DNA of 64,000 nt. Origin: Candidatus Tayloriibacteriota bacterium. Its GTDB lineage: Bacteria > Patescibacteriota > Minisyncoccia > Phycocordibacterales > PALSA-1337. The translations under genes and the position numbers were made by a program. The stretch spans positions 2,809 to 66,808 of the forward strand of contig JACRJP010000002.1 of NCBI GenBank assembly GCA_016215455.1, in the 5' to 3' direction. The first letter of the stretch is position 1, and each line of letters begins with the position of its first letter. The notes under the pieces are model-generated. The model ran no database searches. It worked only from the letters and a program-made list of their open reading frames with translations, and was not told the origin of the DNA. Of the stretch, positions 9,464 to 52,154 are shown one piece after another.

Positions 9464-9466
9464 ATA

Positions 9467-11369: not shown

Positions 11370-11407
11370 AATGATGGGTAATATTATACCTATAGTATAT
11401 CATAGCC

Positions 11408-12980: not shown

Positions 12981-13031
12981 GAGTAAATATTATTTTTTAA
13001 TACACTAAGTATATCATGCTTGAATAAAATC

Positions 13032-13068
13032 AAAAAAAACACCCGCCATACGACGGGTGTTTTTTTTG
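13032..13068. terminator. bidirectional rho-independent terminator
   Basis: A8 run, stem ACACCCG/CGGGTGT with an 8-nt loop, then T8 run. Confidence 0.7.
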
Positions 13069-13088
13069 ACAACAAACTAATTGAAATA

Positions 13089-13529
13089 TTAGTTACAGCC
13101 AGCTGATGCTACAACACCACTGATTGACTTAGCTGCACCTAAACTATCAACACACCAATTATTTCCTCCCTTGAGAGGTACTGACACTGCCCAATATGAA
13201 GCTGATGCTCCACAAGTAGCAGCACCTGCAGCGTTTGATGTTGTTGCTGAATTCAAAATATTCTTAACGGTAGCATCACCAAAGAGACCGAGAGTCTGGC
13301 AGTTCGCAGTTGAAGTTCCAGCTGTTCCAGAAGGCATATATGAATTATTTGAATCATAATAAAGTTCTGCCTGTGAACGAACCTGAGCGAGAGCTCCCTT
13401 AATTGCTGTGTCAGCAGCCTTAGTTCGAGCTGTACCAAGTGAGGCGAGTACAACTGAAGACAAAATACCAATAATAGCGATGACCACGAGCAATTCAATC
13501 AATGTGAAACCTGATGTCTTAATTTTCAT
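13089..13529 (-). CDS. type IV pilin (tandem paralog B)
   Basis: Motif TSGFTLIELLVVIAIIGILSSVVLASLGTART. The C-terminal domain carries Cys pairs. Confidence 0.75.
   Translation of the reverse strand: MKIKTSGFTLIELLVVIAIIGILSSVVLASLGTARTKAADTAIKGALAQVRSQAELYYDSNNSYMPSGTAGTSTANCQTLGLFGDATVKNILNSATTSNAAGAATCGASASYWAVSVPLKGGNNWCVDSLGAAKSISGVVASAGCN
13424..13512. repeat. 89-bp perfect direct repeat, copy 2 (5' end of pilin paralog B)
   Basis: Identical to 12869-12957 by direct comparison of the nucleotide string. Confidence 0.8.
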
Positions 13530-13688
13530 ATGTATTACTAATTTTAATATCTAAAGTGTAAGTCTACCTTACCTTTGTTCATAATTATAGCAAGATTAAC
13601 GGCCATTAATAGTAAAAAAGCTGTATTCTGTGGATAACTAGGGATTTCACCATATTTTATGGTGCATCGTCATCTTTTTTCTAACAAA

Positions 13689-14897: not shown

Positions 14898-14902
14898 GGT
14901 GT

Positions 14903-15964
14903 TTATAACATTCTATCAAGAGTCTTAGGATTGAGCGAGTGTTGATATGCACTTTCTGCCGTAATTTCCCCTGCTCGAACAAGATCAGCGAGACATCGGT
15001 TCATATCGATCATACCTTCATTCGAACTTGTTTCAACAATAGTATTGATTTCATGAATACGTTTTTCACGAATGAGATTTGAAACAGCATTATTTGCAAT
15101 CAAAAGTTCGTATGCAGGGATAAGACCTCCTGATACTCGTGGAATAAGTCGTTGTGAAAAGATACCCGTAAGACTTCCTGCGAGCTGTACTCGAATCTGA
15201 TCCTGTTGTCCTGGTGGGAATGAGTCAATGATACGGTTAATGGTTTGTGAAGCATTATTCGTATGGAGTGTTGAGAAAATGAGGTGGCCAGTTTCAGCAG
15301 CTGTTACCGCTGTTGCCATAGTTTCGATATCTCGCATTTCACCAATAAGAGCAACGTTCACATCCTGACGAAGCATTCCAACAAGAGCTGTATGAAAATC
15401 CGGTGTATCAAAACGAACTTCTCGTTGATCGATAATCGACTTCTTTGATTCGTACATATACTCAACAGGATCTTCAATAGTAATGATATGCTCAGCTCGT
15501 GTCTGATTAATCATTTCAAGCATAGCTGCCAATGTGGTCGTCTTTCCTTGACCGATAGGTCCTACCACAAGAAAGAATCCCTGCTGTTTACGAGTGAATG
15601 TTTCAAGAATTGGAGGAAGATTAAGATCTTGAAGTGTCTTAATTGTTTTAGGAATCAAACGAAGTGCGACAGAAATAGCACCCTGACGATAAAAAGCATT
15701 TCCTCGAAAACGAGCGACACTCCCTACCGCATATGAGAAGTCCACTTCACGAAGCTCTTCAAATCGAGCTTTATTTTCTTTTGAAAGGAGCACATCGAGA
15801 AATCCATGAATATCCTTTTGAGTTAATTCAGTCTTTTTCACTAATGGCAAAAGTTGACTTGATACTCGAATGACTGGATGACGTCCTTCAGCAATGTGGA
15901 GATCAGAAGCCCCTTCTTTGAGCACCATATCTACCATTTCTTCAAGTTCTCTTTTGTAGTCCAT
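14903..15964 (-). CDS. pilT: type IV pilus retraction ATPase (PilT family)
   Basis: 353 aa. Walker A GPIGQGKTTT, Asp box, Walker B and a His box (TLHTN). Length is typical of PilT. Confidence 0.85.
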   Translation of the reverse strand: MDYKRELEEMVDMVLKEGASDLHIAEGRHPVIRVSSQLLPLVKKTELTQKDIHGFLDVLLSKENKARFEELREVDFSYAVGSVARFRGNAFYRQGAISVALRLIPKTIKTLQDLNLPPILETFTRKQQGFFLVVGPIGQGKTTTLAAMLEMINQTRAEHIITIEDPVEYMYESKKSIIDQREVRFDTPDFHTALVGMLRQDVNVALIGEMRDIETMATAVTAAETGHLIFSTLHTNNASQTINRIIDSFPPGQQDQIRVQLAGSLTGIFSQRLIPRVSGGLIPAYELLIANNAVSNLIREKRIHEINTIVETSSNEGMIDMNRCLADLVRAGEITAESAYQHSLNPKTLDRML

Positions 15965-15968
15965 ATGA

Positions 15969-16364
15969 TTAACCTTTTATTTTCTTATAAATCTTATTCA
16001 CCTCTTCAAGCACCTCCGATGGAATGGTTGAGGCTTTGATGATATATCCATCAACATGTAATTTCTGAGCTCGTTCAACATCAGAAGGAGCACTTTGATT
16101 AGTGAGCATGATCACCACAGCATTCGGAGCAAGTTTCTCTTTTCGAATTACCTCGAGAAGTTCAACCCCGTCCATTCCTGGCATTACCACATCAAGAAGA
16201 ATAATATCGGGTAACAAACCTCCATCTCGAAGTACTTTCAGTGTTTCTTCAGGCCCTGCTGCACAATGTACGTCATACCCATTCTTCGAAAACTTCAATG
16301 AGTACATATCAAGAAGGAATTTATCATCATCAACAAGAAGTAGAGAAATTGGTTTTGTAGACAT
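15969..16364 (-). CDS. single-domain response regulator (CheY-like receiver, PilH/PilG-like)
   Basis: 131 aa. Motifs LLVDDD, ...LLDVVMPGMDG, ...DGYIIK. Confidence 0.75.
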   Translation of the reverse strand: MSTKPISLLLVDDDKFLLDMYSLKFSKNGYDVHCAAGPEETLKVLRDGGLLPDIILLDVVMPGMDGVELLEVIRKEKLAPNAVVIMLTNQSAPSDVERAQKLHVDGYIIKASTIPSEVLEEVNKIYKKIKG

Positions 16365-16415
16365 AAAAGTTCTGAGTAATCTTATTATACTATAACTTCG
16401 ACCAAATTAATGACA

Positions 16416-18146
16416 TTACAGTGTATTAACTTCCTCAAATGGGATAAGTCCTTTAAATGCTTTTAACATAGCATCCTCTTTCATAGTAAGCATTCCCTTT
16501 TGACGAAGAATTTTTGAGATCTCAAGCTCTGTTGGACTTTTCATAAGAACTGATTCAATTTCTTTGTCCATCATAAACACTTCAAACACTGCCTGACGAC
16601 CTCGAGTTCCCTTTGGACATTCAGGAGTTGGTACCGCTTCATATACAGTCTTACCGATTTCAATTTGACTTCGAAATTCTGCAGGAAAATCACCGAATTG
16701 TTTGTCGACAATCGCTTTAATAGCACCTTCAACAGGAATAGGTTTTCCACCACCAGGACAGAGAGTACGAACGAGACGTTGAGCCATGGCACAGATAAGA
16801 GTTGGTGCAATAAGGTACGGATCAACTCCCATATCAATAAGACGAGGAATAACACCTGCAGCGTTATTGGTGTGAAGTGTAGAGAATACCAAGTGACCGG
16901 TAAGAGCAGCCTGTACAGCAAGCTGTGCAGTTTCTTTATCTCGAATTTCTCCCACCATGATCACATCAGGGTCCTGACGAAGTGTTGTACGGAGACCGGA
17001 CGCAAATGTATATCCAATTTCAGGGTGCACTTGTGACTGTGCAATTCCTTCCATGTTGTATTCCACTGGGTCTTCAAGTGAAAGTACGTTCATTGCCTCT
17101 TTATCAACCTCATTGAGCATGGAATATAGAGTTGTTGATTTACCGGAACCTGTTGGACCAGTAATCAAAATGAGACCGTACGGACGATGAATAGCGTCTC
17201 GAACACGAGCAAGATTGGTTGGAGTAAGCCCAACATCATCAAGTTTCTTTACCCCCTTATCAGGGTCAAGAATACGCATCACCACCTTTTCTCCGTAGTA
17301 TGCGGGGAATGTTGAGACTCGGAAGTCGATACGACGTCCTTCAATACGAGCAGAGAAACGTCCGTCTTGTGGCTTTCTCTTTTCATCAAGCTTCATGTTT
17401 GAAAGCACCTTAATACGAGCAACTACAGCGCTATGCACTTTCATTGGAAGAACAAGACTTGTATTAAGCACACCATCAACACGGAAACGAACTCGAAACT
17501 TATCATGCATTGGCTCAATATGCACATCGGATGCATTACCTTCTGTTGCATAACGAACAATCGTTGCCACAATTTTTACCACCGGAGCGTCTTCGATGAT
17601 AAGAGGTTCTGCTCCGCCAGCACTTCCAGGAATTGGCGCACCCTTTGGTGGAGTTACTGTTGAATCACTATCGACAGAGAGAACAGTTTCAAGTTCAGAG
17701 AGAGCTTTTGACACTTCCCCTGTAATACCTTTGTACATTTCAATGACCTTTTCAAAGTCTTGTGTACTGATAATAAAAATTTTATATGGAACATTTTTCT
17801 TTGCTGCAATAAAGTTCAAAGCATCACGTGCCTCAATGTTATCAGGATCAACAATACCAACTTCAAGTGCTCCATCTTTAAGAGCAAGTGGTACAAACTT
17901 ATAATGAATAGCTGATTCTTCAGGAATATACTCGAGAATTTCAAAAGGAATACTGATGTCTTGAAGAGCTCGAATTGGCACATTCATAAACTCCCCTTTT
18001 GCTATAAGAATATCTTCTGGTTTGACCCCACGATCAATCAAAGCTTTTTCAAGGGTAACATCCCCAGAGGCCGTCATCTTGCGGACCTCCTGCACATCTT
18101 CCTTTGTTATGACATTTTTCTTTAGCAGGATATCGACGACACTCAT
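16416..18146 (-). CDS. pilB: type IV pilus assembly ATPase (GspE/PilB family)
   Basis: 576 aa. N-terminal T2SSE_N-like domain, Walker A GPTGSGKSTT, His box TLHTNNA. Confidence 0.9.
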   Translation of the reverse strand: MSVVDILLKKNVITKEDVQEVRKMTASGDVTLEKALIDRGVKPEDILIAKGEFMNVPIRALQDISIPFEILEYIPEESAIHYKFVPLALKDGALEVGIVDPDNIEARDALNFIAAKKNVPYKIFIISTQDFEKVIEMYKGITGEVSKALSELETVLSVDSDSTVTPPKGAPIPGSAGGAEPLIIEDAPVVKIVATIVRYATEGNASDVHIEPMHDKFRVRFRVDGVLNTSLVLPMKVHSAVVARIKVLSNMKLDEKRKPQDGRFSARIEGRRIDFRVSTFPAYYGEKVVMRILDPDKGVKKLDDVGLTPTNLARVRDAIHRPYGLILITGPTGSGKSTTLYSMLNEVDKEAMNVLSLEDPVEYNMEGIAQSQVHPEIGYTFASGLRTTLRQDPDVIMVGEIRDKETAQLAVQAALTGHLVFSTLHTNNAAGVIPRLIDMGVDPYLIAPTLICAMAQRLVRTLCPGGGKPIPVEGAIKAIVDKQFGDFPAEFRSQIEIGKTVYEAVPTPECPKGTRGRQAVFEVFMMDKEIESVLMKSPTELEISKILRQKGMLTMKEDAMLKAFKGLIPFEEVNTL

Positions 18147-18157
18147 ATGTAGTTTAA

Positions 18158-18508
18158 TTATCTACCCGCAGCTGGAACACGTGGAGTTGAAGTAGTAGCA
18201 GAACGAGATGAAGATCCCAGTGGTGCGAATGGATTCACACGACCAATAGGGATTGCTGGAACTTCGATAGTATAGTCAACGAGTACCTTGTATTCGAGAG
18301 ATTCGAACAAAGAATTATCAATTTTAAGATTATTAAGTTGTACAAGAAGAGCTGCAATATCATCTCCTCCTGCAATAGAACCCTGAACCTCACCTGGAAT
18401 CATTGTGAAAGCTGGTTCATTGTTTCCAGAGAAACCAAAATAAGCGGCAACAGCTGCTGCTATCAGAATGACGATGATTATAATTGTTTTTGTATTTGAT
18501 CCGTTCAT
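18158..18508 (-). CDS. small signal-anchored protein in the pilus operon (possible PilP-like)
   Basis: 116 aa with one N-terminal TM helix. Located between the pilB and PilO-like genes. Confidence 0.4.
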   Translation of the reverse strand: MNGSNTKTIIIIVILIAAAVAAYFGFSGNNEPAFTMIPGEVQGSIAGGDDIAALLVQLNNLKIDNSLFESLEYKVLVDYTIEVPAIPIGRVNPFAPLGSSSRSATTSTPRVPAAGR

Positions 18509-18509
18509 G

Positions 18510-19112
18510 TTAGTTTTGGCGAAGCCAATATGTCTTAAGCTCTACAGAAAAGTCATACACATTTGAATCAGTTGGAGCAAATGAAATCTTTGTTATATCA
18601 AGAATACGAAGACTAAGTTCAAGATCGTGGAGAATATTAATAAAATTCTCATATGTCGTAGTGACATTAAAATTCATGGTCAAAGCATCATACTTTGAAA
18701 GAGATGCTGGGGCTTGCTGCTGAATACTTGGTGCTGGAGAACCAGACACACTTGCAGCACCTCCTGTTGCAGGTGCTGTCTTAGTTGAATTTCCTCCTCC
18801 TGTACGAACATTCTTGATCGAAACTCCTCGACGAGAAGTAATACCGTTGATATCGATAATCAAACGTATGTTATCAATATGATCAGGTAGCAATTTCTTG
18901 AGTCGTTCACGGTCCACCTCAGCAATACTGTTGTATGCATTAATAACTTGATCTCGTTTTTTGAGAAGCTCTTTTGAATCTTCAAGTGTCTTGCTGAATT
19001 GAGCATTTTCAGCCATGGCAGCACGCACCTTGTCATACTGACCGACAGTAAAGGTAAAGAAGATACCTATCGCGACTATTATGAGTACTAATGGAAGAAT
19101 GTTTCGGTTCAT
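18510..19112 (-). CDS. PilO-like pilus assembly protein
   Basis: 200-aa bitopic protein with a TM helix, a coiled-coil segment and a C-terminal domain. Its position follows the PilN-like gene. Confidence 0.55.
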   Translation of the reverse strand: MNRNILPLVLIIVAIGIFFTFTVGQYDKVRAAMAENAQFSKTLEDSKELLKKRDQVINAYNSIAEVDRERLKKLLPDHIDNIRLIIDINGITSRRGVSIKNVRTGGGNSTKTAPATGGAASVSGSPAPSIQQQAPASLSKYDALTMNFNVTTTYENFINILHDLELSLRILDITKISFAPTDSNVYDFSVELKTYWLRQN

Positions 19113-19117
19113 AATGG

Positions 19118-19837
19118 TTATTGACGAGTAGATGTTGCAGTTGTTGTTGCAGACGGAGTCGACACATCCGTAGGTGATGTTCCTCCACTCAAAGCACTTT
19201 CGATATATTTCTTAAATGAAATTTCTTGTGGATCAACTCCAGCACTGAAAGAAAATCCTACTGTCCCCTTATCATCGATACCGAAATCAGATACAACAGG
19301 ATCCTTGAGTACCTTACTTCCCCCGAAGACATCAGACTGGAATGCAAGCACAGGAAGAGATGTTCCTTCACCCTTCATACTCATAACAATTCTATCCTTA
19401 ACATTTGTTGGAAAAGTAACATCAAATGACTTAAATCGTACACTTGTTGTTGTTTCTCTCCCTATAACATCAAAGATATTCGCCACAGCGAGGTGGTTGT
19501 TGATTAATTCTCTCGAGAGATTTATTTTTGCATTGAAGCGCTCGAGAAACTTAATGTCTGTACCGAACTGTTCACGATTGTGTGTAATCTGTTTTTTATA
19601 ACTCTCCTGTTGCTTTTGTAATATTTTTGTCCAAGCAAATACTCCACCCGCCATAGCAACTGAGATAATGAAAACAAGAACACCAATGATACTAAAAAGA
19701 CTAACTGATTGGTGGATCTGTTGTCCTGTCTCCGGGACAAGTGGCTTTTTCGGTATGAATGATGTTTGAAATTTGGTTTCCATGGAAAAAAGGAACTGTA
19801 GTGAGTATATTATAGCCCAGAACAAACCTTCCGACAC
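19118..19837 (-). CDS. PilN-like pilus assembly protein (start may be the internal ATG near 19783)
   Basis: Bitopic protein with a Ser/Thr-rich tail. Lies immediately downstream of pilM. Confidence 0.55.
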   Translation of the reverse strand: MSEGLFWAIIYSLQFLFSMETKFQTSFIPKKPLVPETGQQIHQSVSLFSIIGVLVFIISVAMAGGVFAWTKILQKQQESYKKQITHNREQFGTDIKFLERFNAKINLSRELINNHLAVANIFDVIGRETTTSVRFKSFDVTFPTNVKDRIVMSMKGEGTSLPVLAFQSDVFGGSKVLKDPVVSDFGIDDKGTVGFSFSAGVDPQEISFKKYIESALSGGTSPTDVSTPSATTTATSTRQ

Positions 19838-19858
19838 TAGTAAAGTGTGTATATCTCG

Positions 19859-20980
19859 CTACTGAATTTCAGAAAGACGGCGTAGAGCAATACCTATAGC
19901 GACCGCGAATTCAGGACCGGCAGTTTTGAATTGTTCAGCAAGGAATGCAGGTGTTTCGAGCTTACCAAAAGGATCTGCGTATACAACATTGTTCTGGAAA
20001 CTCGTCTTAGCAAGTTCAGTAAAACCCTTAAGAAGTACTCCTCCCCCTGTAAGGATGATTTTACTGATATCTTTATTGTATTTTCTTTGATAGCCGAGCA
20101 TCACACGATTCGCTTCATAAAAAACATAGTCGAGAGTAAGACTAATAACGTCAGTTAATTCCTTATGTTCAGGTCCTCCCGTCAAACCATACACTCGCTT
20201 CATATTTTCTGCTTCAGTAACTGGAATACTCAGAGATTTTGAAATAGCTAATGTAATATCTTGTGATCCTCGATTAATAATATGAGATGTTCGCAAAAGC
20301 CCTCGCTCGATAATGTAGAGTTTTGTGGTACTTGCTCCCATATCTACCACCATATTTGCCTGAATACCTTGATCAAGTACTGCACGGAGTGAACTGAAGA
20401 GCTCTATCTCAAAGAATGATGATTGAAGTCCTGTCTTTGCCATAAGGCCTTGGTAGTTAGCGATAGATTCGTTGTGTATCGCAACAACAAGAACTTCACT
20501 TGTTCCTTTGTTGACTGGTGGTTGTGATCCAGCTGGAAGCGAAGTATCTTCAATTGCATCTTCTTTAGGAATTATTGACCAATCAAGGAGAACTTCAGTA
20601 ATTGGTACAGGAATATACTTTCGAGCTTCGAGAGTAATAATCTCTCCAATCTGTTTACTATCAGTAGCAGGGACATTAATAAAACTAATAAGGCTCGATG
20701 AGAGTGGTAATGCGGTACCACATGTCTTTGTTGTTGTTTTTGCTTCACGCAAAATATCAGTAAGCGCCTGAGCTGTTTTTTCGAGAGTAAGGTTAGTTGC
20801 ACGTCCAATTTCAGTGCCTCCATAAGGACCGAGAGCAAGTTCACCATAGGTTTCAAGAACAGCTCTTCCTTTCTTTTTCTTGATTTGTACAATCTTAATC
20901 GCTGACGAACCGATATCAATACCAAGAACACTTTGTTCCTTTTTGCCGAATATAGAAAAGATGTTCTTTAGAAAATCCAT
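19859..20980 (-). CDS. pilM: type IV pilus assembly protein PilM (actin-like ATPase fold)
   Basis: 373 aa. N-terminus GIDIGSSAIKIVQIKK... with FtsA/actin-like phosphate-binding motifs. Confidence 0.8.
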   Translation of the reverse strand: MDFLKNIFSIFGKKEQSVLGIDIGSSAIKIVQIKKKKGRAVLETYGELALGPYGGTEIGRATNLTLEKTAQALTDILREAKTTTKTCGTALPLSSSLISFINVPATDSKQIGEIITLEARKYIPVPITEVLLDWSIIPKEDAIEDTSLPAGSQPPVNKGTSEVLVVAIHNESIANYQGLMAKTGLQSSFFEIELFSSLRAVLDQGIQANMVVDMGASTTKLYIIERGLLRTSHIINRGSQDITLAISKSLSIPVTEAENMKRVYGLTGGPEHKELTDVISLTLDYVFYEANRVMLGYQRKYNKDISKIILTGGGVLLKGFTELAKTSFQNNVVYADPFGKLETPAFLAEQFKTAGPEFAVAIGIALRRLSEIQ

Positions 20981-32710: not shown

Positions 32711-33123
32711 GGGGATGATTGGCTTCGACGTATGATTCCCTTGTACATATGCACTGGAGAGCTCCATTAACTCTTAAATCTGATGGAAATCGCAACTGCA
32801 AAAAATTCAGTCGCAAAGGCAGTTCGTTCACCGTTTTTCACGGCTAACGATTTTGCTTTCGCTTACGCACGAGCTTAAACACTCTGCCTAATCGACACTT
32901 CTTCCCTATGATCCTGTAGTTGGGCTGAAGTGATATATCCTCAGGATAGGATGTGTACTGTCTCATTACACCTCCGAAACTTAGAGACTCGTATCATGAT
33001 CATTTAGTCCGTTTATAGTTCATGATATTAAAGTGTCACGCAAGTGACACACGAAGCGTACTAACCAGCGTAGAAATATATACAAAGATTATATGCACCC
33101 GGGTTCGATTCCCGGCATCTCCA
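32711..33123 (+). ncRNA. ssrA: transfer-messenger RNA (tmRNA, SsrA)
   Basis: 5' GGGGATGATTGGCTTCGACG... The 3' tRNA-like end is ...GGGTTCGATTCCCGGCATCTCCA. The internal tag ORF ends GCT AAC GAT TTT GCT TTC GCT TAC GCA CGA GCT TAA. The context AAAAAUUCAGUC GCA resembles the E. coli resume-codon context. Confidence 0.8.
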
Positions 33124-33227
33124 CAACTTTATAACAAAAGCACCCATGAGGGTGCTTTTGTGTTTATGGTTGATTTTTTCCACCACCTAATCTAAGCTAG
33201 CCACAGACAACATCGATACTTACTGCT

Positions 33228-33698: not shown

Positions 33699-33756
33699 CC
33701 TTTTTATTACCCACCTCTTCTCTACATCTCCCATGAGACTTTTTACAAACTCTTTT
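33699..33756. repeat. imperfect ~58-bp direct repeat, copy 1 (remnant of a gene 3' end)
   Basis: TTTTTATTACCCACCTCTTCTCTACATCTCCCATGAGACTTTTTACAAACTCTTTTA matches 34345-34404 with about 4 differences. Both copies encode ...KEFVKSLMG(D/G)VEK on the minus strand. Confidence 0.6.
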
Positions 33757-33778
33757 AATATGCTAGGGTGTACGATGG

Positions 33779-34330
33779 ATGAACACACTGGCACAATTAA
33801 TTCAAGAATATCTTGAGGCTAAAGACAAAAGTGAGTCCGGTCTAGCAAGAGTAGCTCGGGTCAACGAGCTACTCTTGAGACTCATCACTAACGTCGAAAA
33901 GAAACCGTTCATACATGGTAAGAAACTTATCCATGTCTTAACCAGGAGTATCCGCTACATCGCCTACATCAAGATGCAGGAGGATGTCGCAGAATTACGA
34001 GAATTACTCGCAGACTATGATCGGGTGAGTAACTGGAGTCGAGGACAAGAAAATCTCCAAGTGATCAAAGACCTTCACCAAAAATGGTCTTTGAAAGTAA
34101 AGCTCCCATTACTTTTGTCTCCATTCGCGTACGCAGCTCATTTTGAAGAAGCTACATATGCGAGTATTCCGTCCGCAAGACGCGACGAAGCTACCACCGA
34201 AATCACCATAGAGGTGGCACGTATCATTGCGCTTGAAACCACACATAGTCTCTTAAGTGACGACATGGACAAAAATCTTGAATACGTAGAGACTCTCAAC
34301 GATGTTCTCTTACGAGCGCTCTTAGAATAA
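33779..34330 (+). CDS. hypothetical protein bracketed by the direct repeats
   Basis: 183-aa ORF with no recognised motif. Confidence 0.4.
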   Translation: MNTLAQLIQEYLEAKDKSESGLARVARVNELLLRLITNVEKKPFIHGKKLIHVLTRSIRYIAYIKMQEDVAELRELLADYDRVSNWSRGQENLQVIKDLHQKWSLKVKLPLLLSPFAYAAHFEEATYASIPSARRDEATTEITIEVARIIALETTHSLLSDDMDKNLEYVETLNDVLLRALLE

Positions 34331-34344
34331 CTAAAAGTGAGCAT

Positions 34345-34404
34345 TTTTATTACCTACCCTTTCTTCTCTACACCTCCCATGAGACTTTTTACAAATTCTT
34401 TTAC
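34345..34404. repeat. imperfect ~58-bp direct repeat, copy 2 (true 3' end of gene 34354..35061)
   Basis: See copy 1. Confidence 0.6.
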
Positions 34405-35426: not shown

Positions 35427-35456
35427 AAAAAATCACTCGTATGAGTGATTTTTTAT
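35427..35456. terminator. bidirectional rho-independent terminator
   Basis: A6 run, stem ATCACTC/GAGTGAT with loop GTAT, then T7 run. Confidence 0.6.
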
Positions 35457-36373
35457 TTCTCTTGCACCACCAACCTCTTAACAACAGGTGCTTCAGCGAG
35501 ATACATTGATCGAATCTGAGAATCAGCTAAAGCATTACTATAGATATGTACTTCATCAATTACCCCAAGAAAATTATTCCAATCAGCAGTCGAGTCCTGT
35601 TGTCCTAATATAATCGTAGCACCCGAAAGATCACCTGCTTCAGTGTACTGTGCCTCAGAAATTTTTGTTCCATTTAAATAACCTTTCATAGTTTGTGTAC
35701 TTCCTGATGCACCACCTGTCCATGAAAGTGCTACGTTAGTCCATTCCCCAACTTTAGCTTCACCTATATTTAGATTAGTCGCACTCGAGCCCCTCACCAC
35801 TGATACTGTACTTCCAAGTATTCGTAAATAAATTCGATTTGATCCAGACCCTACTGCAAAAAAGAGAATTCTCTGTCCCTGACCAGCTGCACTCAAGTCA
35901 CTAGGCTTAAACCACAAAGATACAGTTCCTCCTTTACTGGTAATACCTGAAAGAGCTGAGGTCGCAGGAACTGTTATCGATAATCTATCTGCACTTGATT
36001 GAAAATTGATCGCATTACCTAAAATCCCTGATACAACCTGAGGAGCACCCGCAACACTGAGGTTGAGTAAATTCCCTGAAAGGTCACTCACCCTTGTTGG
36101 ACTCGTATCAATTGCATCCATACTCCAATAGACAGGTGCATCAGCGCCGTACGCATGATACGTACTTGCATCAAATTGTTTACCCGCCGCAAGTTTAGCT
36201 TTCGTTCGAGTTGTAGTAAGACTTGCAAGTACCACCGAAGAAAGTAGTCCAATGATTGATATAACTACAAGTAGCTCAATGAGCGTAAAGGCTTTTGTAG
36301 AAAATACAGAGAATGATTTCATGTACGTAAATAATAACACACTCAATAAAATGATTACCACTTTTTTATCCAT
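35453..36373 (-). CDS. prepilin-type N-terminus fused to a LamG/concanavalin-A-like lectin domain (candidate adhesive tip pilin)
   Basis: Motif KAFTLIELLVVISIIGLLSSVVLASL. The C-terminus shows the LamG_3-type signature ...GEWTNVALSW...LGVIDEVHIYSNALADSQI. An alternative start lies at the internal ATG near 36322. Confidence 0.65.
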   Translation of the reverse strand: MDKKVVIILLSVLLFTYMKSFSVFSTKAFTLIELLVVISIIGLLSSVVLASLTTTRTKAKLAAGKQFDASTYHAYGADAPVYWSMDAIDTSPTRVSDLSGNLLNLSVAGAPQVVSGILGNAINFQSSADRLSITVPATSALSGITSKGGTVSLWFKPSDLSAAGQGQRILFFAVGSGSNRIYLRILGSTVSVVRGSSATNLNIGEAKVGEWTNVALSWTGGASGSTQTMKGYLNGTKISEAQYTEAGDLSGATIILGQQDSTADWNNFLGVIDEVHIYSNALADSQIRSMYLAEAPVVKRLVVQEK

Positions 36374-36680: not shown

Positions 36681-37874
36681 ATGAATCGACAGTATCGCAA
36701 TGCGGCACTCTACATTCCCTTTGCTATCTTCAGTGAACCTCTATTCTGGGGACCAATCCTCACAAAAACAGTTGTGGAACTCGGCAAACTCAGTCTTTCA
36801 GAAATGTATTTTCAAGAAGCTGTGTGTGTTGTCCTCATGTTTCTCATCGATATTCCCACAGGAGCTATCGCAGATATAATTGGACGAAAACGCACACTGA
36901 TTATTGGTCAATCATTTCTCCTTGTAAGCTACATTCTGTTTGCACTCATGAGCGAACCTCTGCACACATGGCTCGCAAATATCTGTTGGGCTATTGGAGC
37001 AGCATTTCGTTCAGGTGCTGATAGTTCACTTATCTACGAATCACTGCCTCTCGAAAATCGTGATGCGGTCTATCATAAGCTTGAGTCAAAAGTTCAAGGT
37101 TGGAAACTTGCACTTATGGCGATAGGGGCTCTGGCATCAGGCTGGATGGCACATATTGATTTACGCCTCCCTCTCTTGGTATCAGTTCCTTTTGTCGGCA
37201 TCTCATTCATCACGACATTCTTTCTTGTTGAAGAACACTCTCATCACACATTACGAGAAGTGAAATATTCTTTTCGTGAACACCTTCATAAAATGTATGA
37301 GGGATTGATGTATACAGTTCATATCAAAAAGATTTTGTGGCTCATGTGTTTCTCTGCACTTCTCAGTGCGGCAGGTAAATTATGGTTCTTCACCTACAAC
37401 CCCTACTTTGAAAAAGTCGGTCTGGATGTGCAAGAATTTGGGTATATATTTTTCATGCTCAACATTGTTGGATGGGCCGCAAGCCACTTCAATCAAAAGA
37501 TGCTTGAAAAATTAGGAGAACGAACCATGCTCATCACATTACTTCTCTCTACTGCTATTCCCATTATGATCATGGGTATATTCCCTCTCAAGATTATGGC
37601 GCTCGGGGTATTCTTCCAGAATATTACCCGAGGTGGTTTACCACCACTATTTTTGGCAATGTCCCAAAAATACATCACGAATAATGCAATTCGAGCAACG
37701 ACATTGTCGGTAAAGTCATCTATTGGTGCTTTGGCGGGTGCAGGATCACAGATAGTTTTTGGTTATGCACTTACTCAAGCTGGTTTCCTTTCAACACTTA
37801 CCGGACTGGGAGTAGTGACCTTAATTCTTGGACTACTATGCATGACATGGTATGGAAAGTTGTTCAAAAAATAA
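36681..37874 (+). CDS. MFS transporter
   Basis: 397 aa with about 12 TM helices. MFS motif A DIPTGAIADIIGRKRTLIIG. Confidence 0.75.
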   Translation: MNRQYRNAALYIPFAIFSEPLFWGPILTKTVVELGKLSLSEMYFQEAVCVVLMFLIDIPTGAIADIIGRKRTLIIGQSFLLVSYILFALMSEPLHTWLANICWAIGAAFRSGADSSLIYESLPLENRDAVYHKLESKVQGWKLALMAIGALASGWMAHIDLRLPLLVSVPFVGISFITTFFLVEEHSHHTLREVKYSFREHLHKMYEGLMYTVHIKKILWLMCFSALLSAAGKLWFFTYNPYFEKVGLDVQEFGYIFFMLNIVGWAASHFNQKMLEKLGERTMLITLLLSTAIPIMIMGIFPLKIMALGVFFQNITRGGLPPLFLAMSQKYITNNAIRATTLSVKSSIGALAGAGSQIVFGYALTQAGFLSTLTGLGVVTLILGLLCMTWYGKLFKK

Positions 37875-37997
37875 CATCATCGCTCGTCGTATGACGGGTG
37901 ATTTTTTATTGGACTTTTTTGAATAAAACAGTAGTATAGAAATACCACGAAAGACGTGGTTGTCCTTCACATCAATCCTCAATCCCTCGAACAAACC

Positions 37998-38810
37998 ATG
38001 AAACGTTTGCTCCAATGGCTCGCTGCTTTTGCAGTGATCTTGTCCACCAATGCCGCCATCAATATCGAGGTGAGCTACGCGCTCGCTCCGAATGCATTCG
38101 GAAGTCCGAATTACGCTGCGTGGGTTGGTAACACCACCTACGCCGTCGAAAACGGCCTCACCAGCTATGGTGCTCCTGGCCCCGGACAATACAACCGTGT
38201 GGCGGGGAATCTCGACTACAACCAGATCGTCGTCACGGGGTTCCCCTCGTGGCTCGGCAATGCTGACCCGGCAGGGACATTCGGTCCCGCCTACGCAGCT
38301 GAACTCGGCAATCGTCTTCACGCACCCCTGCACATTGTGGGGACAGGTGGAACGACATTCTCGATCGACAAGCTGTCATTCACCATGACATCTTCAGATC
38401 CCGGAAACGGGCTAGGATTTTCCTTCGCCGCTGGAAGTTACACTTACAGCAGTCAGTATTATGGCATTCAATATGGTCTCAATGGAGTCAAAGGCGGAGG
38501 TGACGATGTCATCATCACCTCCGGACCGAGCTCAGTGCTCGTAAACGAGATCATCGGTCGTGGGAGTGGCAATGCTTATGCCGCCTACTCCACTGATCCT
38601 GGTGCCAGCAATCAGGACAAGATTTTCAATCTGATCGCGAACTTCAGCGACGATGGTCCGTTCACCGTGACCGCTACTTACAGCCTTGAAGACTCGAGTG
38701 GCTCCGCGGAAGTCCTCATCGGGACAGAAGTCCCTGAAAATTCGACATGGGCAGCTATTGCGTTTCTCACTCTCCCTGTCGGATGGGTTGTCCTTCGGCG
38801 ACGAAAGTGA
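37998..38810 (+). CDS. secreted protein with a PEP-CTERM-like C-terminal sorting signal; GC-rich islet
   Basis: Signal peptide MKRLLQWLAAFAVILSTNAA. The C-terminus reads ...EVPENSTWAAIAFLTLPVGWVVLRRRK (VPE, then a TM helix, then RRRK). Local GC is much higher than the flanks. Confidence 0.5.
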   Translation: MKRLLQWLAAFAVILSTNAAINIEVSYALAPNAFGSPNYAAWVGNTTYAVENGLTSYGAPGPGQYNRVAGNLDYNQIVVTGFPSWLGNADPAGTFGPAYAAELGNRLHAPLHIVGTGGTTFSIDKLSFTMTSSDPGNGLGFSFAAGSYTYSSQYYGIQYGLNGVKGGGDDVIITSGPSSVLVNEIIGRGSGNAYAAYSTDPGASNQDKIFNLIANFSDDGPFTVTATYSLEDSSGSAEVLIGTEVPENSTWAAIAFLTLPVGWVVLRRRK

Positions 38811-38899
38811 TTGATCACGAACTTTGATACGGCGCACACGTGGCGCTATTTTTATTTCACACAAACACAAAGATACTCCTTTAGGTTCCAAAATATGCT

Positions 38900-40009
38900 A
38901 TGATGATCCATCATATGACAACATCGACTACCGCTCCGAGCGAGACTCGCTGGTCACTCTACACCTCCCCTACAACTACATGGGAAGCAATATTTGCAGC
39001 ATGCGAACAAGCGACACAAAGTATTGATTTAGAACAATTTATTTTCGTCGATGACGAAATCGGAAGAAAACTTCTTGATATTTGTGCAACAAAGGCACAA
39101 CAAGGAGTGCGTGTACGTTTACTATGGGACGGTGCAGGAAGTTTTAATCTTTTTGGAAATTTCTTAATCTCAGAACTAAGTCAGAAACATATTCAAGTTG
39201 CCTTTTTTAACACAATACTTCCTCGAGCATTCCACAATCATCGTTGGTGGTTTTTTAGAAATCATCGACGTTCTATTGTAATCGACAAAACTATTGCTTT
39301 TACTGGTAGTTTCTCAATATGGGAAAAAACAAAAGAATGGCGTGATACAACCGTTAGAATTGAAGGGAGTATTGTTGCAAGTATTGAAGCTTCATTTGAG
39401 GTGATGTGGGCACGTGCGCATAATATAAAAACAGATTGGAGTGCACGTGCAGTCTCATCTGAAGATGGTTTCAGTTATGTTACCAATAGTCCTGTTCCTG
39501 GAAAACAGTTCCTCTACCACCGTATCATCGATGCTATTCGTAATGCACGTTCATATATTTGTATCACTACTCCCTATTTTGTCCCCGATCGACGACTTAT
39601 ACGCGTACTCCGACTTGCAGCACGTCGCAATGTCCTCGTACAAATTATTATTCCAGAATCTTCTGATCATCCCGTTGTCGACCTTGGTGCAGAATCATAT
39701 TTCCATGTCTTATTAACCGCTGGTGTCAAAATATTTAGAATTAAACAACCTCTCATTCACAGTAAATCAATTGTTATCGATGATGACTGGGCAACAATTG
39801 GAACAATGAACCTCGATAGTGTGAGTCTCCACTACAATTTCGAAGCAAATATCGTTAGTAACAAGCGTGAATTTGTAGAAGAAATAAAAACAATATTCTA
39901 TCAAGATCTTGAGATCGCAACTGAGGTACAACCACATATTTGGGAATCACGCCCCTTTACCCAAAAATGGCTCGAATTTCTCGTTAGGTTTGTTCGTACT
40001 TTTCTATAA
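38900..40009 (+). CDS. phospholipase D / cardiolipin synthase family protein (two HKD motifs)
   Basis: HRRSIVIDKTIAFTGSFSI and HSKSIVIDDDWATIGTMNLD. Both fit the HxKxxxxD consensus. Confidence 0.8.
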   Translation: MMIHHMTTSTTAPSETRWSLYTSPTTTWEAIFAACEQATQSIDLEQFIFVDDEIGRKLLDICATKAQQGVRVRLLWDGAGSFNLFGNFLISELSQKHIQVAFFNTILPRAFHNHRWWFFRNHRRSIVIDKTIAFTGSFSIWEKTKEWRDTTVRIEGSIVASIEASFEVMWARAHNIKTDWSARAVSSEDGFSYVTNSPVPGKQFLYHRIIDAIRNARSYICITTPYFVPDRRLIRVLRLAARRNVLVQIIIPESSDHPVVDLGAESYFHVLLTAGVKIFRIKQPLIHSKSIVIDDDWATIGTMNLDSVSLHYNFEANIVSNKREFVEEIKTIFYQDLEIATEVQPHIWESRPFTQKWLEFLVRFVRTFL

Positions 40010-44995: not shown

Positions 44996-47902
44996 TTAGA
45001 TTGGGAGATTTACAGGAGGTTGTTGTGTAGGTTTCGATACCGGAACATCAGAGGTTCGTGATACTGGTGGGGTATCCACAACGAAGCGTGGAGTCGTATT
45101 AAGTGGGGTGCGAGGTACTGTCGGAGTCGCAGATGGTAGTTTTGGACGTTCATACTTCTTCATGACCTCACTTTCAACAATACTTCGTTCACGACCATAC
45201 TTCAAATATGAGAGTTCCTTAAGATTTGGAACAATTCCCTTGTCACCCGCTACTGGAGCGATAGTTTCAATATCAAAGGGTTTAATTGGTTGACCATTTG
45301 AGAGGATCTTGAGATACGCATGACGGTTCTCAATATTCATGAGGTCTTTTGCAGTAAAGACTGGTGAGAACTGCTTTTCAAGATATTCAGCATCGTCAGC
45401 ACCTACACGAAATACTGCCATTGAACCGACGTTACCGAACACTGAATCACGAATACCCTCTTCAAGTTGGGCGATAAACTGATGCGCGATATTAAGTGAC
45501 AACTTATACTTTCGAGCTTCAGACAAAATGGTTGAAATAGAATTTGTTGTAACATTCTGGAATTCATCGATATACAAATAGAATGATGGCAAATTCTGAC
45601 CGAGTGAATCAACACGTGAAAGTGCTGCCATAAGAATTTTACCCACAAGAATGAGACCAATGAGATTAGCATTGATATCTCCAAGACGTCCCTTTGAAAG
45701 ATTAACCAAAAGAATCTTCTTTGAGTCCATGATCTCACGGAAATTAAACGTCGATTTCTCTTGAGCAACAATCGGACGCATAATATCATTCGACAAAAAC
45801 ACATCGAATTTACTTGTGATATACGGCACAATATTTGAAAGAGATGCTTCCCCTCCCGCCTTCTCAGCGACATCTCTCCAGAACTGAACAACAATTGGAT
45901 TCTTACATCGTGAAAGTTTAAGTTCACGATATTGTTTCTGAGCAAGAACGCGTGATACATCAAGGAGTGTATTTCCTGATTCAGGATCTTCCATGACAAG
46001 AAGTACTGCGTTACGGAAATACTGCTCAAACATTGGACCTCCTGCCGTCTTCATATCAAACAACTTATTAAATATCGACAACATCTCATTCACCACGAAT
46101 GTTTTTTGTTCAGGATATCGAGCATCAAACTCAAGCATGTTGAGTCCCATCGGGCGATCGGTGTATCCAGGATCAAAATAAATAACGTCTTCATATCGAT
46201 GTCGTGGAATCGCAGCTAGAATATCCTGGATGTCAGAGCCGTGAGGGTCAATCATACACACACCGTCTCCCCTCTCAATATCCTGAATGATCATGTTCTT
46301 GAGAAGTGTTGTCTTACCGGTACCTGTCTGACCAATAGCGTAGAAGTGGCGTAGACGATCTTCATCAGTAAGGAATATTTTTGTTGTGATATTTCGATGG
46401 TGATTAAGACCGAGCACAGTACCTTGCTGTGGCAAATCGATTGGTGCAGGAGCACCACCAGCCTTTGATATTTTGAGTTGAGGAGCTGTTCGTATAACCG
46501 TTGATGGAAAATGGACCATACTTGTAAGTTCTCGGAAACTTAGAGGAATCTTCTGATCCTCATCAAAAAGACGGAAAGTAAAATCATGAATACCGTGTGC
46601 TAGACCATTACCAATCAAACGATTAAATCGAATTCGATTTCCGGTTGGATTATCAAATTGATTAAATGCAGATTCAATCTCCCCCAACACATTACTTGCA
46701 GTCATTTCATCTTTAGCTGATGCGACAATACGAATATTCGCCAAGACAATTGGACTTGAAATTTTATTCTTAATATTCTCAACTGCAATCGCATCAACAG
46801 GAACAGTTTCTTCCTCCTTCTTTTCAGAAAAAGTTTTTACAATATCCTTACCAAATGCCCATATATGTTCAAACTTAGACTCAGGTATATCAATCGCTTC
46901 TTTAACCTTTGTTCCTTTATTAATCTTATCAATTGCCTTCTTGTACGCTCCTGTGTACTTATCACCACAAGGATTAAATATCATCTGAAGAGCTGCCCCC
47001 TGACCATCCTTAGCTATCTTTGAAAATGAATTGAGAATAACATTGAGTGGATCATGATCAAATTGTTCATATGTCTTGAGAGAAAATATCGGCTTACGAC
47101 CTGACATAGCATACGACATTTTGGTAACACCCTTTTCAGAAAAGATATTATAATCATCTTTTTTCTCAACTATCTTTGCATTATGGAAGATAGAGAGAAT
47201 CTGTTTTTCAAGAAGATTCCTTTTTGTATCATGGACAGCGACATAGAAAACAAACTCATCGCTATGATTCGCTACTGCAATTTCAAAAGCAAAAAAATTG
47301 GTACCATCCTGATTATCATCATTAACCGACAACATACCTGCATAGAATTGTTCCATTGATGAGACAAGTTCTTTGAGATTCTTTTGCTCAGCATCCTTGC
47401 CCGCTTCAGGAAGTGTCACTTCATAGAGAGTTACTTTCAATGCACGATACAAAGAGTCGCTTTCTTTAAGACCTGGAATAGGAAAACCTGCCTTAATATA
47501 CTGCACAAGAAAACGTTCGAAGTCATCCTCAATATGTGGATCCTTCAGATTTTTTACAATTGTAAGAGCGTTTTTAAAACCTTTTTCTCGAAAGATTCCA
47601 ACAAGTTCAGCCATCGTATCATCATGCGTCTCGGGAGTAAGTTCAAGAACAATAGCCTCGGTTTCGCGTGCTGAAGCAGCATACTCCGGATGCAACACTT
47701 CCCCTGGATGAACTTGACCGTACTCTTTAATAACCTCACGTGCAATATGAGACTGTTCAGAAGAAGAGATGTTGGCAAGTTTACCTTCAACTTTACGCGA
47801 TGCTAGTTCACGTTCTTTTTCAGCAACTTGAGCACGTAGATATGCAAGCTCCTGTTCAGGATTACGAAGACCCGCTTGAATATCAAGAGAAAACTTTTCC
47901 AT
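44996..47902 (-). CDS. large soluble P-loop ATPase of the FtsK/HerA/T4CP (TraG-VirD4)/VirB4-like class, with a ~480-aa N-terminal domain and a Pro-rich tail
   Basis: 968 aa. Walker A HFYAIGQTGTGKTT. About 260 aa downstream is a Walker B-like motif YLYIDEFQN, followed by AHQ. No TM helix. The C-terminal ~60 aa are Pro/Thr-rich. Confidence 0.6.
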   Translation of the reverse strand: MEKFSLDIQAGLRNPEQELAYLRAQVAEKERELASRKVEGKLANISSSEQSHIAREVIKEYGQVHPGEVLHPEYAASARETEAIVLELTPETHDDTMAELVGIFREKGFKNALTIVKNLKDPHIEDDFERFLVQYIKAGFPIPGLKESDSLYRALKVTLYEVTLPEAGKDAEQKNLKELVSSMEQFYAGMLSVNDDNQDGTNFFAFEIAVANHSDEFVFYVAVHDTKRNLLEKQILSIFHNAKIVEKKDDYNIFSEKGVTKMSYAMSGRKPIFSLKTYEQFDHDPLNVILNSFSKIAKDGQGAALQMIFNPCGDKYTGAYKKAIDKINKGTKVKEAIDIPESKFEHIWAFGKDIVKTFSEKKEEETVPVDAIAVENIKNKISSPIVLANIRIVASAKDEMTASNVLGEIESAFNQFDNPTGNRIRFNRLIGNGLAHGIHDFTFRLFDEDQKIPLSFRELTSMVHFPSTVIRTAPQLKISKAGGAPAPIDLPQQGTVLGLNHHRNITTKIFLTDEDRLRHFYAIGQTGTGKTTLLKNMIIQDIERGDGVCMIDPHGSDIQDILAAIPRHRYEDVIYFDPGYTDRPMGLNMLEFDARYPEQKTFVVNEMLSIFNKLFDMKTAGGPMFEQYFRNAVLLVMEDPESGNTLLDVSRVLAQKQYRELKLSRCKNPIVVQFWRDVAEKAGGEASLSNIVPYITSKFDVFLSNDIMRPIVAQEKSTFNFREIMDSKKILLVNLSKGRLGDINANLIGLILVGKILMAALSRVDSLGQNLPSFYLYIDEFQNVTTNSISTILSEARKYKLSLNIAHQFIAQLEEGIRDSVFGNVGSMAVFRVGADDAEYLEKQFSPVFTAKDLMNIENRHAYLKILSNGQPIKPFDIETIAPVAGDKGIVPNLKELSYLKYGRERSIVESEVMKKYERPKLPSATPTVPRTPLNTTPRFVVDTPPVSRTSDVPVSKPTQQPPVNLPI

Positions 47903-50948: not shown

Positions 50949-51182
50949 ACACCCTAGTATAGCCTAAATATATCAAAAAAGTAAGAAAATAGGCCTAAAA
51001 ATAGCCTCTTATATGAGTTTTCCACAGTATCCACATTGAGTGGATAAGTCTTTACTTGACGAGGGTAAGTATGGTATAATACGCCTAGACACGCAGAACT
51101 TCGAAAGTTCACCCGATTCGCACCTGTAGTGCGTCTTGACTGTGTCTTGTCTCAACCTCAACATAACGAAAGGACCGAAGCC

Positions 51183-52154
51183 ATGAAACGCTTCCTTCTC
51201 ATCGTGAGCCTCGCGCTCACACTCGGTATCGCTGGGGTTGCACAAACCCCTTCTAGCAACTCGGTCTCTCTCGCAACTCAGCTCCCTCTCGGGACCGCTG
51301 AGCGGCTTGAGGAGAATGCGCGTTCGCGCATTACTTACCTGACCGTATTCCTCTGGTTCACTGACTCGACCAAACTGATCAAGGAGTTCACTCCTGTGAG
51401 GTTTGATTCGACCAGTGAAGACCTCGAGACCTTTGTTCCTCGAGTCCTTGGAGAAAAGCTTGCGCTTCTCAACAGTCTCGCTATCACCAATACGGGGCGG
51501 CCTATACAGCTCGCCTACAAGTTTGTTGATAGTCGACTCATCATGCTGTTTTTTGGCACAGCTGAATTCACGTTGGAAAACCGCAACGGACAGTGCTCTG
51601 CACCGCTCGATGTGGAATACAACTGGCAGCTGCGCCCAGGATACGCTACTGGGTTTGGGATGCATGTCCCTGGGATTGTGAAGGCACATCTTGTTGCCCA
51701 AGACGGGACAAACACACTCTTTGACAAGGAGATCGATCGGAACACCAACGACAATGGGTTCGGAATCATGTCGACCATCGACTATCTCTTTCTCCCTCCT
51801 GAAGCCATCACCAATGGCTACAACGGAGAGTTGACGATATGGGTCAAGGACGGCAGTGACCCAAGTGGTCTCAGAATGGCGACCTACGACCTCCAAACAG
51901 GGGTTCGAACGTCTCCCATTCATCTGACCATGACCGCCTACTATCAAGGGGTCACGATCAAGATCACTGGGTCTCCAGGAAAGTCGGTAGCGCTTTGCCG
52001 CTCTACCACTCTTGGGGAGACACCTACAGTCTTTCAAACATTCATCTTGGACAGTGGTGGTGCCACCACTGTCCACATCAGCACAGAGGACACTGACTCT
52101 GTCACCGGATTCTTCAGCGCAAAGTATGTCGCAAGCGACAGTGCTAAGCGTTGA
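51183..52154 (+). CDS. hypothetical secreted protein in a GC-rich islet between adk and secY
   Basis: AAAGGA Shine-Dalgarno sequence before the ATG. Signal peptide MKRFLLIVSLALTLGIAGVAQ. Followed by a strong terminator. The antisense 355-aa ORF is treated as a shadow. Confidence 0.5.
   Translation: MKRFLLIVSLALTLGIAGVAQTPSSNSVSLATQLPLGTAERLEENARSRITYLTVFLWFTDSTKLIKEFTPVRFDSTSEDLETFVPRVLGEKLALLNSLAITNTGRPIQLAYKFVDSRLIMLFFGTAEFTLENRNGQCSAPLDVEYNWQLRPGYATGFGMHVPGIVKAHLVAQDGTNTLFDKEIDRNTNDNGFGIMSTIDYLFLPPEAITNGYNGELTIWVKDGSDPSGLRMATYDLQTGVRTSPIHLTMTAYYQGVTIKITGSPGKSVALCRSTTLGETPTVFQTFILDSGGATTVHISTEDTDSVTGFFSAKYVASDSAKR

Follow-up and report, generated by a model that had tools for sequence, protein, structure and literature searches.

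PEP-CTERM signals have been described only in bacteria with an inner and an outer membrane, usually in many copies per genome and with EpsH encoded in each of these genomes, and they share the same three-part design with LPXTG signals (PMC1569441). As criteria for a PEP-CTERM/exosortase system, we used several such proteins per genome (median 8) and a host with two membranes and genes for exopolysaccharide (EPS) biosynthesis; for the enzyme itself (EpsH/Xrt), we used a protein of the same genome with at least eight transmembrane segments and with Cys, Arg and His residues. In the stretch of 64,000 nucleotides analyzed here (hereafter, the window), which belongs to a Candidatus Taylorbacteria genome of the candidate phyla radiation (CPR), the gene at positions 37998–38810 encodes a putative secreted protein with a C-terminal tail of this kind. 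The prevailing view is that cells of the CPR have no outer membrane. The interpretation toward which we lean is that this gene was horizontally acquired and encodes a functional surface protein, which would be exported by the Sec system and held by its C-terminal helix without exosortase cleavage.

The foreign origin of the gene in its Taylorbacteria genome is supported because its codon usage is unlike that of housekeeping and ribosomal-protein genes, the home of its family is in diderm soil phyla and the CPR copies of this family are polyphyletic (see below). The 1-kb bin from 38001 to 39000 showed the highest GC content in the window (0.530, compared with approximately 0.40), and in a profile with 200-bp steps the GC content rose from the start codon, peaked at 0.62 and dropped just past the stop codon. 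The coding sequence has a GC content of 0.549 and a GC content at third codon positions (GC3) of 0.587, compared with GC3 values of 0.25–0.39 in the neighboring genes; elsewhere in the window, GC3 is 0.30 in ribosomal-protein genes and 0.29 in housekeeping genes. The proportion of C-ending codons is 0.40 in the target gene, compared with 0.13 in ribosomal-protein and housekeeping genes. Translational selection was ruled out as the source of the high GC3, because the ribosomal-protein genes do not share it. An initial annotation, which had placed the gene in the most GC-rich islet of the window and had considered it likely to be foreign, was therefore borne out on both counts. The gene and its parts are as follows.

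37998–38810, + strand: coding sequence, 270 amino acids plus stop codon (NCBI MBI5126192.1 / HZA80_00285, annotated as 'hypothetical protein', Candidatus Taylorbacteria)
37998–38057, + strand: putative signal peptide, residues 1–20 (MKRLLQWLAAFAVILSTNAA), from sequence features and the similar N-termini of homologs
38058–38720, + strand: mature domain, residues 21–241, from the AlphaFold model and the family alignment
38730–38741, + strand: degenerate PEP motif V245-P246-E247-N248, from the family alignment
38742–38795, + strand: hydrophobic C-terminal transmembrane helix, residues 249–266 (STWAAIAFLTLPVGWVVL), from the alignment and the AlphaFold model
38796–38807, + strand: basic cluster RRRK, a predicted cytoplasmic stop-transfer anchor (positions 267–269 are Arg or Lys in >90% of homologs)

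An alternative in-frame GTG start codon is located at position 37956, and the open reading frames (ORFs) on the opposite strand at 37836–38333 and 38532–38891 were treated as shadows of the GC-rich frame.

The protein ends with ...GTEVPENSTWAAIAFLTLPVGWVVLRRRK, in which V245-P-E-N248 is followed by a hydrophobic stretch at residues 249–266 and by R267-R-R-K270; the VPEx motif, hydrophobic helix and Arg/Lys cluster described in the initial annotation were thus confirmed. Its reading of these elements as a PEP-CTERM signature is supported with a qualification: the tail is homologous to true PEP-CTERM tails, but its motif is PEN instead of PEP and its score falls below the curated cut-off. Residues 245–270 align to positions 1–23 of the 24 positions of TIGR02595 with 13.8 bits (E = 0.079; cut-off, 16 bits), and PF07589 was not reported for the protein at E ≤ 10 or at E ≤ 0.01. 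The tail falls short of the cut-off because the second Pro of the motif is replaced by Asn. When 118 members of the family were aligned, 106 of 115 homologs showed Pro at position 248 and only the target showed Asn; position 246 is Pro in 114 homologs and position 247 is Glu in 95. A 98%-identical strain variant likewise has VPEN, and the syntenic homolog in the related contig L003 has VPEP.

The target tail aligns column for column with the accepted PEP-CTERM tails of its homologs. PF07589 was matched by 85 of the 118 homologs, and the NCBIfam matches were distributed among TIGR02595 (66), PEPxxWA-CTERM (NF035944; 30), VPLPA-CTERM (6) and VPDSG-CTERM (1). Because the homologs carry these domains, we consider the target tail to descend from PEP-CTERM-type signals; it is of the PE-x-ST-WA flavor and has lost its second Pro. 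The combination named in the initial annotation as fatal to its claim, namely a tail missed by the hidden Markov model (HMM) and no homolog with a PEP-CTERM domain, was not observed.

The N-terminus (MKRLLQWLAAFAVILSTNAA, followed by INIE) resembles a Sec signal peptide, as judged from sequence features and the alignment of homologs. In the AlphaFold model (overall pLDDT 92, pTM 0.84), this region contains a helix at residues 3–11 with lower pLDDT, residues 21–241 form a β-sandwich with three helices (pLDDT 97–99), and a short linker leads to a helix at residues 249–267. The mature domain carries the family motifs APNAFGSP, ELGNR and GRGSGN, and all 12 invariant residues of the family (P31, N32, S36, N45, W85, E102, G104, R106, Y150, G156, G189 and G191) are retained in the target. 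No Pfam or NCBIfam model covers this domain, and no relative of it was found in the PDB. The same domain of approximately 220 amino acids is joined to PEP-CTERM, PEPxxWA, VPLPA, VPDSG-like and other tails. The modeled fold, together with the alternative anchors and tandem modules, suggests a structural or adhesive surface protein.

Two further architectures were observed in the family, among P0251 (2964 amino acids), P0253 (2525 amino acids), L068 and L084. In Armatimonadetes and others, the domain occurs two to four times within giant proteins of 2400–2960 amino acids, and in Verrucomicrobia it occurs in proteins of approximately 575 amino acids that end with ...LFFRLK and carry no PEP-CTERM tail.

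A second GC-rich islet of the window, at 51183–52154 (+ strand) and overlapping 51009–52076 (– strand), has a GC content of 0.53 and a GC3 of 0.60, with third-position base use nearly identical to that of the target gene. Long ORFs are present on both strands of 51009–52154, and gene callers picked opposite strands in two assemblies. The product of 51183–52154 (HZA80_00360) has 323 amino acids and a signal peptide; it matches no homolog but itself, and the islet was therefore dropped as a second traceable transfer.

Distribution of the gene family and its copies in the CPR

A homolog search with the target protein yielded 160 matches at E ≤ 0.01 (best non-self E value, 7e-74). The best non-self matches were 52–55% identical, and the named ones were from Acidobacteria and Bryobacteraceae. 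The family is modest in size and uncharacterized. Searching 1.84 billion representatives with a profile retrieved 1075 members at E ≤ 0.001, and a scan of one genome per species found 80 loci with a family gene, in Bryobacteraceae and other Acidobacteria, Verrucomicrobia, Planctomycetes (Gemmatales, Pirellulaceae and Phycisphaerae), Sphingomonas, Phenylobacterium and Armatimonadetes. Its native hosts are Acidobacteria, Verrucomicrobia, Planctomycetes, Alphaproteobacteria and Armatimonadetes. Eleven of the 80 loci were from metagenome-assembled genomes (MAGs) of the CPR, including Taylorbacteria, Moranbacteria and seven labeled 'uncultured Candidatus Saccharibacteria'. At the locus with this label that was checked (L018), the contig is considered genuine CPR because the adjoining GAPDH is 91% identical to Parcubacteria proteins. 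A metagenome scan added further CPR-like loci, including a contig from the 0.1-µm fraction of Hainich groundwater. Approximately 17 CPR-like loci bear the family gene as a GC-rich single-gene islet: at non-CPR loci the GC content of the family gene equals that of its flanks, and at every CPR locus of the genome scan it lies 6–19 points above them. One locus of the metagenome scan (L093) is borderline, with a difference of only approximately 4 points.

We constructed a neighbor-joining tree from the mature domain after trimming off the tails (216 columns, 100 bootstraps, 13 CPR copies). Monophyly of all CPR copies was recovered in 0 of 100 bootstraps. The Parcubacteria copy L018 grouped with that of an Acidobacterium (L017) with a bootstrap of 98 and 71% identity, L015 grouped with another Acidobacterium (bootstrap 92) and L072 fell inside Phycisphaerae (bootstrap 66); with weaker support, CPR copies were placed beside Pirellulaceae and Alphaproteobacteria. 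Two CPR copies, L008 and L009, paired with a bootstrap of 90, and these loci have only the family gene in common, with no flanking synteny. The tail type accompanies the domain, in that L072 has VPLP as in its Phycisphaerae neighbors and the Moranbacteria copy has IPEPASWAMM like those of Alphaproteobacteria. These groupings point to polyphyletic CPR copies and several transfers.

By exact sequence matches, FtsH, RecG, IF-3 and the target protein of the window are proteins of a Candidatus Taylorbacteria MAG on a 245-kb contig, and the window also contains a ribosomal-protein operon, SecY, tmRNA, a type IV pilus cluster and a TrwB-like ATPase. The sharp GC step at the borders of the coding sequence could be taken to indicate that a fragment of a GC-rich organism was joined into a CPR contig during assembly or binning. 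We find such an artefact scarcely credible, since the same junctions are present in the 245-kb NCBI MAG contig, in a 49-kb Logan contig and, with 15 substitutions, in a 6.7-kb contig of another run; the gene order (LamG-type pilin-like gene, MFS, target, PLD and IF-3) recurs in the latter two. In addition, a homolog with 52% identity occupies the same locus in L003, directly upstream of the PLD gene, in a relative whose FtsH, RecG and PLD are 91%, 88% and 79% identical to those of the window. The 15 nucleotide differences in the target copy of the 6.7-kb contig (the 98% variant) comprise nine synonymous and six nonsynonymous changes.

The target forms a single-gene unit, because terminator-like hairpins are present on both sides. 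The signals around it are as follows.

37879–37908, + strand: terminator-like hairpin (37879–37902; 10-bp stem with five GC pairs) followed by a T-run (TTTTTATTGG)
37909–37937, + strand: putative weak sigma-70-type promoter, TTGGAC-17 nt-TAGTAT, read by eye
37944–37968, + strand: 5΄ leader hairpin ACCACG-AAAGA-CGTGGT, then GTCCTTC, from the comparison with L003
38831–38857, + strand: terminator-like hairpin GGCGCACACGTGGCGCT (38831–38847) followed by ATTTTTATTT, which aligns with a hairpin and T-run in L003

The first of these would terminate the upstream MFS transporter gene and marks the 5΄ edge of the target unit. The candidate promoter scores below the threshold of a consensus scan; it is AT-rich, of native composition, and aligns with a similar stretch upstream of the syntenic L003 copy. 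At the site of the leader hairpin, L003 has CCTGC...GCAGG and then GTTCTTC, such that the stem is maintained despite changes on both sides; the support for this hairpin is comparative only, as its folding energy is no better than that of shuffled sequences (z = –0.5), and the leader showed no Rfam match. A hairpin with a T-run is present within approximately 80 nt of the stop codon in every CPR copy.

The dN/dS ratio was approximately 0.17 between the target and the syntenic L003 copy, approximately 0.11 in the orthologous CPR pair L006/L090 and, from only 15 differences, roughly 0.2 between the target and the 98% variant. The other CPR copies retain 11 or 12 of the 12 invariant residues. We evaluated whether the gene might be a neutral passenger en route to decay, as a recent foreign insertion without a role, of which the damaged PEP motif would be the first erosion; a composition unadjusted to the host genome, a PEN substitution unique in the family and a tail under the HMM threshold all speak for this. 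Such a fate is unlikely, however, given the low dN/dS ratios (approximately 0.1–0.2), an ORF intact in at least three assemblies and the strain variant, the full set of invariant residues, the leader and terminator of its own, and the presence of a copy at the same locus in L003, whose housekeeping genes are at synonymous saturation. The target gene is thus real and under purifying selection.

The synonymous sites of both the window/L003 and L006/L090 pairs are saturated (dS of 1.2–3.4 in flanking genes and approximately 2.6 in the target); L006/L090 is the cleaner pair, since its copies are mutual closest relatives. Both members of both pairs nevertheless have GC3 values of 0.56–0.59, compared with 0.25–0.41 in their neighbors. 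The composition of the family genes is drifting toward that of the host, because the CPR copies have lower GC3 values than their nearest diderm relatives (e.g. 0.69 versus 0.82 and 0.67 versus 0.85), and this shift looks slower than a simple model predicts, with dS being a rough measure at saturation. The GC-rich codon usage at saturated synonymous sites hints that something besides recent arrival maintains the composition; a slow shift, selection on composition or repeated gene replacement could each account for the retained GC3.

Sorting enzyme and use of the tail

We scanned the ORFs with at least three predicted transmembrane segments in the window and in the CPR-like loci against Pfam and NCBIfam. 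All such polytopic ORFs of the window were identified (the prepilin peptidase PilD, PAP2, PilC, MFS, SecY, FtsH and DUF2238), and those of the CPR-like loci further included PrsW, VTT/DedA-like, MacB/FtsX, ZIP, DUF2339 and DoxX proteins. No exosortase or sortase was found in the window or among the polytopic or GC-rich ORFs flanking the approximately 17 CPR-like loci (approximately 200 kb), and the window contained no EPS locus.

In the interpretation that we favor, a single gene entered the Taylorbacteria lineage horizontally, now stands behind an AT-rich, native-looking promoter and leader and ahead of its own terminator, and is retained under purifying selection. The signal peptide would carry a β-sandwich protein of approximately 220 residues across a single membrane, the C-terminal helix would halt the transfer with RRRK on the cytoplasmic side, and the domain would remain displayed at the cell surface, with the protein anchored by its tail (type I) and uncleaved by exosortase. 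The PEP motif has decayed to PEN in the window lineage, in this reading because it would no longer be needed. The export, the topology, the absence of cleavage and a role in adhesion or host contact are what we infer from the features above.

Several observations weigh against this interpretation. Tail-anchoring follows from sequence logic only, and an exosortase may be encoded elsewhere in the genome, beyond the scanned 64 kb; indeed, sorting enzymes with many substrates are often encoded at a distance from them (10.1101/2023.06.07.544157). The window contains only one PEP-CTERM-like tail. Related CPR loci contain two or three within 20 kb, with such genes side by side in L015 (three) and in L003, L048 and L160 (two each), in keeping with the large number per genome that marks an active system (PMC1569441). 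Moreover, 12 of the 13 CPR copies retain the canonical motif of their own tail type, and VPE-ST-AAI is common to the tails of the window and L003 copies at a protein identity of only 52–54%. Clustered tail genes and canonical motifs in 12 of 13 copies therefore form the pattern expected with a sorting enzyme present. As for the origin of the window copy, its nearest relatives are other CPR copies (56–58% identity) and Bryobacteraceae (55%) with bootstraps of ≤29, and because of this low support its placement does not point to a particular donor.

These points would fit a working exosortase substrate, in which an exosortase/archaeosortase-family enzyme or an unrecognized analogue encoded outside the window would cleave at VPEN and pass the protein to a lipid or cell-wall acceptor. 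We regard this as doubtful. Such an enzyme was found neither in the window nor in the approximately 200 kb of CPR flanks, the target has lost the near-invariant second Pro, and the prevailing view is that CPR cells lack the outer membrane of the envelope by which PEP-CTERM was defined. Nor does the indexed literature lend support: a connection of exosortase with Patescibacteria or Saccharibacteria, or of PEP-CTERM with CPR/Patescibacteria, is made in none of the indexed papers, and in the one paper with both 'PEP-CTERM' and 'candidate phyla radiation', PEP-CTERM occurs in the reference list only.

Beside the family gene, additional GC-rich genes whose secreted products carry PEP-CTERM-like tails were observed in L003 (6171–6791 and 7008–7793), L015 (8111–8638 and 9008–9703, both on the – strand), L048 (3126–3842), L160 (1520–2476) and L072 (9294–9728). 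The second L003 gene is a distant relative of the N-terminal half of the target (BLASTP E = 2e-7), and its tail, EVPEPSTWAAI, is nearly identical to EVPENSTWAAI in the window.

The initial annotation had also proposed processing by an unrelated sortase- or archaeosortase-like enzyme. A CPR sortase, as an LPXTG-type transpeptidase, might in principle recognize the tail and link the protein to the cell wall, given the shared three-part design of PEP-CTERM and LPXTG signals (PMC1569441) and given that Taylorbacteria encode sortases: a sortase (PF04203) is located 5 kb from the family homolog in the related Taylorbacteria contig L004. The substrate adjoining this sortase, however, carries FPSTG followed by a helix and basic residues, whereas VPENST has no Thr-Gly scissile pair, and the window contains no sortase. 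Processing by such an enzyme is accordingly unsupported, and we consider it very improbable.

Taken by itself, the window gene is an unremarkable case of horizontal acquisition, and its signal has degenerated slightly. It is the CPR host that makes the case more than routine, with intact, constrained and often clustered genes here and in approximately 17 other CPR-like loci. We tentatively suggest, as a possibility short of an expectation, that monoderm, host-dependent CPR bacteria repeatedly capture and keep the PEP-CTERM-tailed proteins of diderm soil co-inhabitants, which are possibly their hosts, and use them without a classical exosortase, either tail-anchored or via an unrecognized enzyme. 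If this were true, such genes would be natural markers of CPR–host partnerships and could lead to a new sorting system. Two outcomes are conceivable: ultrasmall CPR episymbionts have an unnoticed sorting enzyme, or they reuse the tail as a plain membrane anchor for borrowed surface proteins. As several CPR copies stand beside specific donor lineages, the family could help to point to the physical partners of uncultured CPR bacteria.

Repeats, an upstream motif and neighboring genes

The tmRNA 3΄ end is not repeated, and the interval from ssrA (32711–33126) to the target contains neither an integrase nor a transposase. The only mobile-element gene seen adjoining any CPR copy is located in L009 at 12438–13949 (+ strand), 1.6 kb downstream of the family gene; it is GC-rich (0.59) and encodes a large serine recombinase with Resolvase, Recombinase and Zn-ribbon domains. 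An 11-nt direct repeat without mismatches, GGTTGTCCTTC, is present at 37958–37968 in the 5΄ leader and at 38786–38796 in the codons of the C-terminal helix; it was rejected as an integration scar, as it lies partly inside the coding sequence and approximately 0.3 such repeats are expected by chance per 1.5 kb, and it is probably meaningless. A direct repeat of approximately 57 nt is located at 33701–33757 and 34344–34403 with a spacing of 645 bp (95% identity over 42 nt and 86% over the adjoining 21 nt), and it brackets an unannotated ORF (33779–34330) in a variable stretch between the tmRNA and the LamG gene.

As a post-hoc observation, the exact sequence GTTCTT was present within 60 nt upstream of the start codon in 8–10 of approximately 16 CPR-borne copies in unrelated contexts, usually right after a small hairpin and before the Shine–Dalgarno site. 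For comparison, it was present within 160 nt in only 3–4 of approximately 125 non-CPR copies, and within 80 nt in 7 of 184 native CPR ORFs, including the MFS gene directly upstream of the target. Upstream regions of this type were observed in the window (37909–37968), L003 (approximately 9940–9975), L005, L018, L020, L061, L072 and L160; in L061 and L072, GTTCTT is predicted to pair with the ribosome-binding region. This leader motif had no Rfam match.

Near the target, the gene at 35453–36373 (– strand) is pilin-like and encodes a LamG domain and, at the N-terminus, a methylation motif. We regard it as a hypervariable surface gene because its identity between the window and the strain variant in L002 is no more than 62.5%, compared with 99–100% for the flanking genes. 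A complete type IV pilus set is located at approximately 8300–20980 (several pilins, PilD, PilC, PilM, PilO and two ORFs at 14903–18146 that are presumed from their position to be ATPases). Together with a 968-amino-acid TrwB/DUF8128 coupling-protein-like gene at 44996–47902, this set is typical of the surface and DNA-transfer machinery of the CPR and could be relevant to DNA uptake.

Comparison with known systems

The PEP-CTERM/exosortase system (EpsH, XrtA; TIGR02595, PF07589; PMC1569441) is one of the closest described counterparts. The homologs of the target are bona fide PEP-CTERM proteins, and the target itself has a predicted signal peptide, a hydrophobic stretch and a terminal basic cluster; it differs in having PEN instead of PEP and in falling under both curated thresholds, and its surroundings differ in being those of a CPR host, with no EpsH/Xrt in the scanned sequence and no EPS locus nearby. 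The PEPxxWA-CTERM variant (NF035944), which is typical of Alphaproteobacteria, fits the spacing of the target tail (P-E-x-S-T-W-A), and two family members with VPEA/VPES-STWAMM tails also have no second Pro. However, the target falls short of this model, and in the tree its mature domain stands apart from those of Alphaproteobacteria. LPXTG/sortase signals share the three-part C-terminal design and would be the expected anchoring system for an envelope of the monoderm type, as in the CPR, but the VPENST of the target differs both from the Thr-Gly pattern and from the FPSTG used by the Taylorbacteria sortase substrate.

With respect to gene transfer, passages of a study of islands in Patescibacteria (mSystems 2025, PMC12455944) report hundreds of islands and individual transfers, most of them within Patescibacteria and few from other phyla; no mention of PEP-CTERM or Acidobacteria was found in these passages. 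As in the transfers that they describe, the target is a single gene of deviant composition that was transferred into a streamlined CPR genome, whereas its family is native to diderm phyla and was acquired several times. Finally, in combining one mature domain with alternative C-terminal anchors, and here also in forming tandem modules within giant proteins, the family resembles the 'choice-of-anchor' surface domains.

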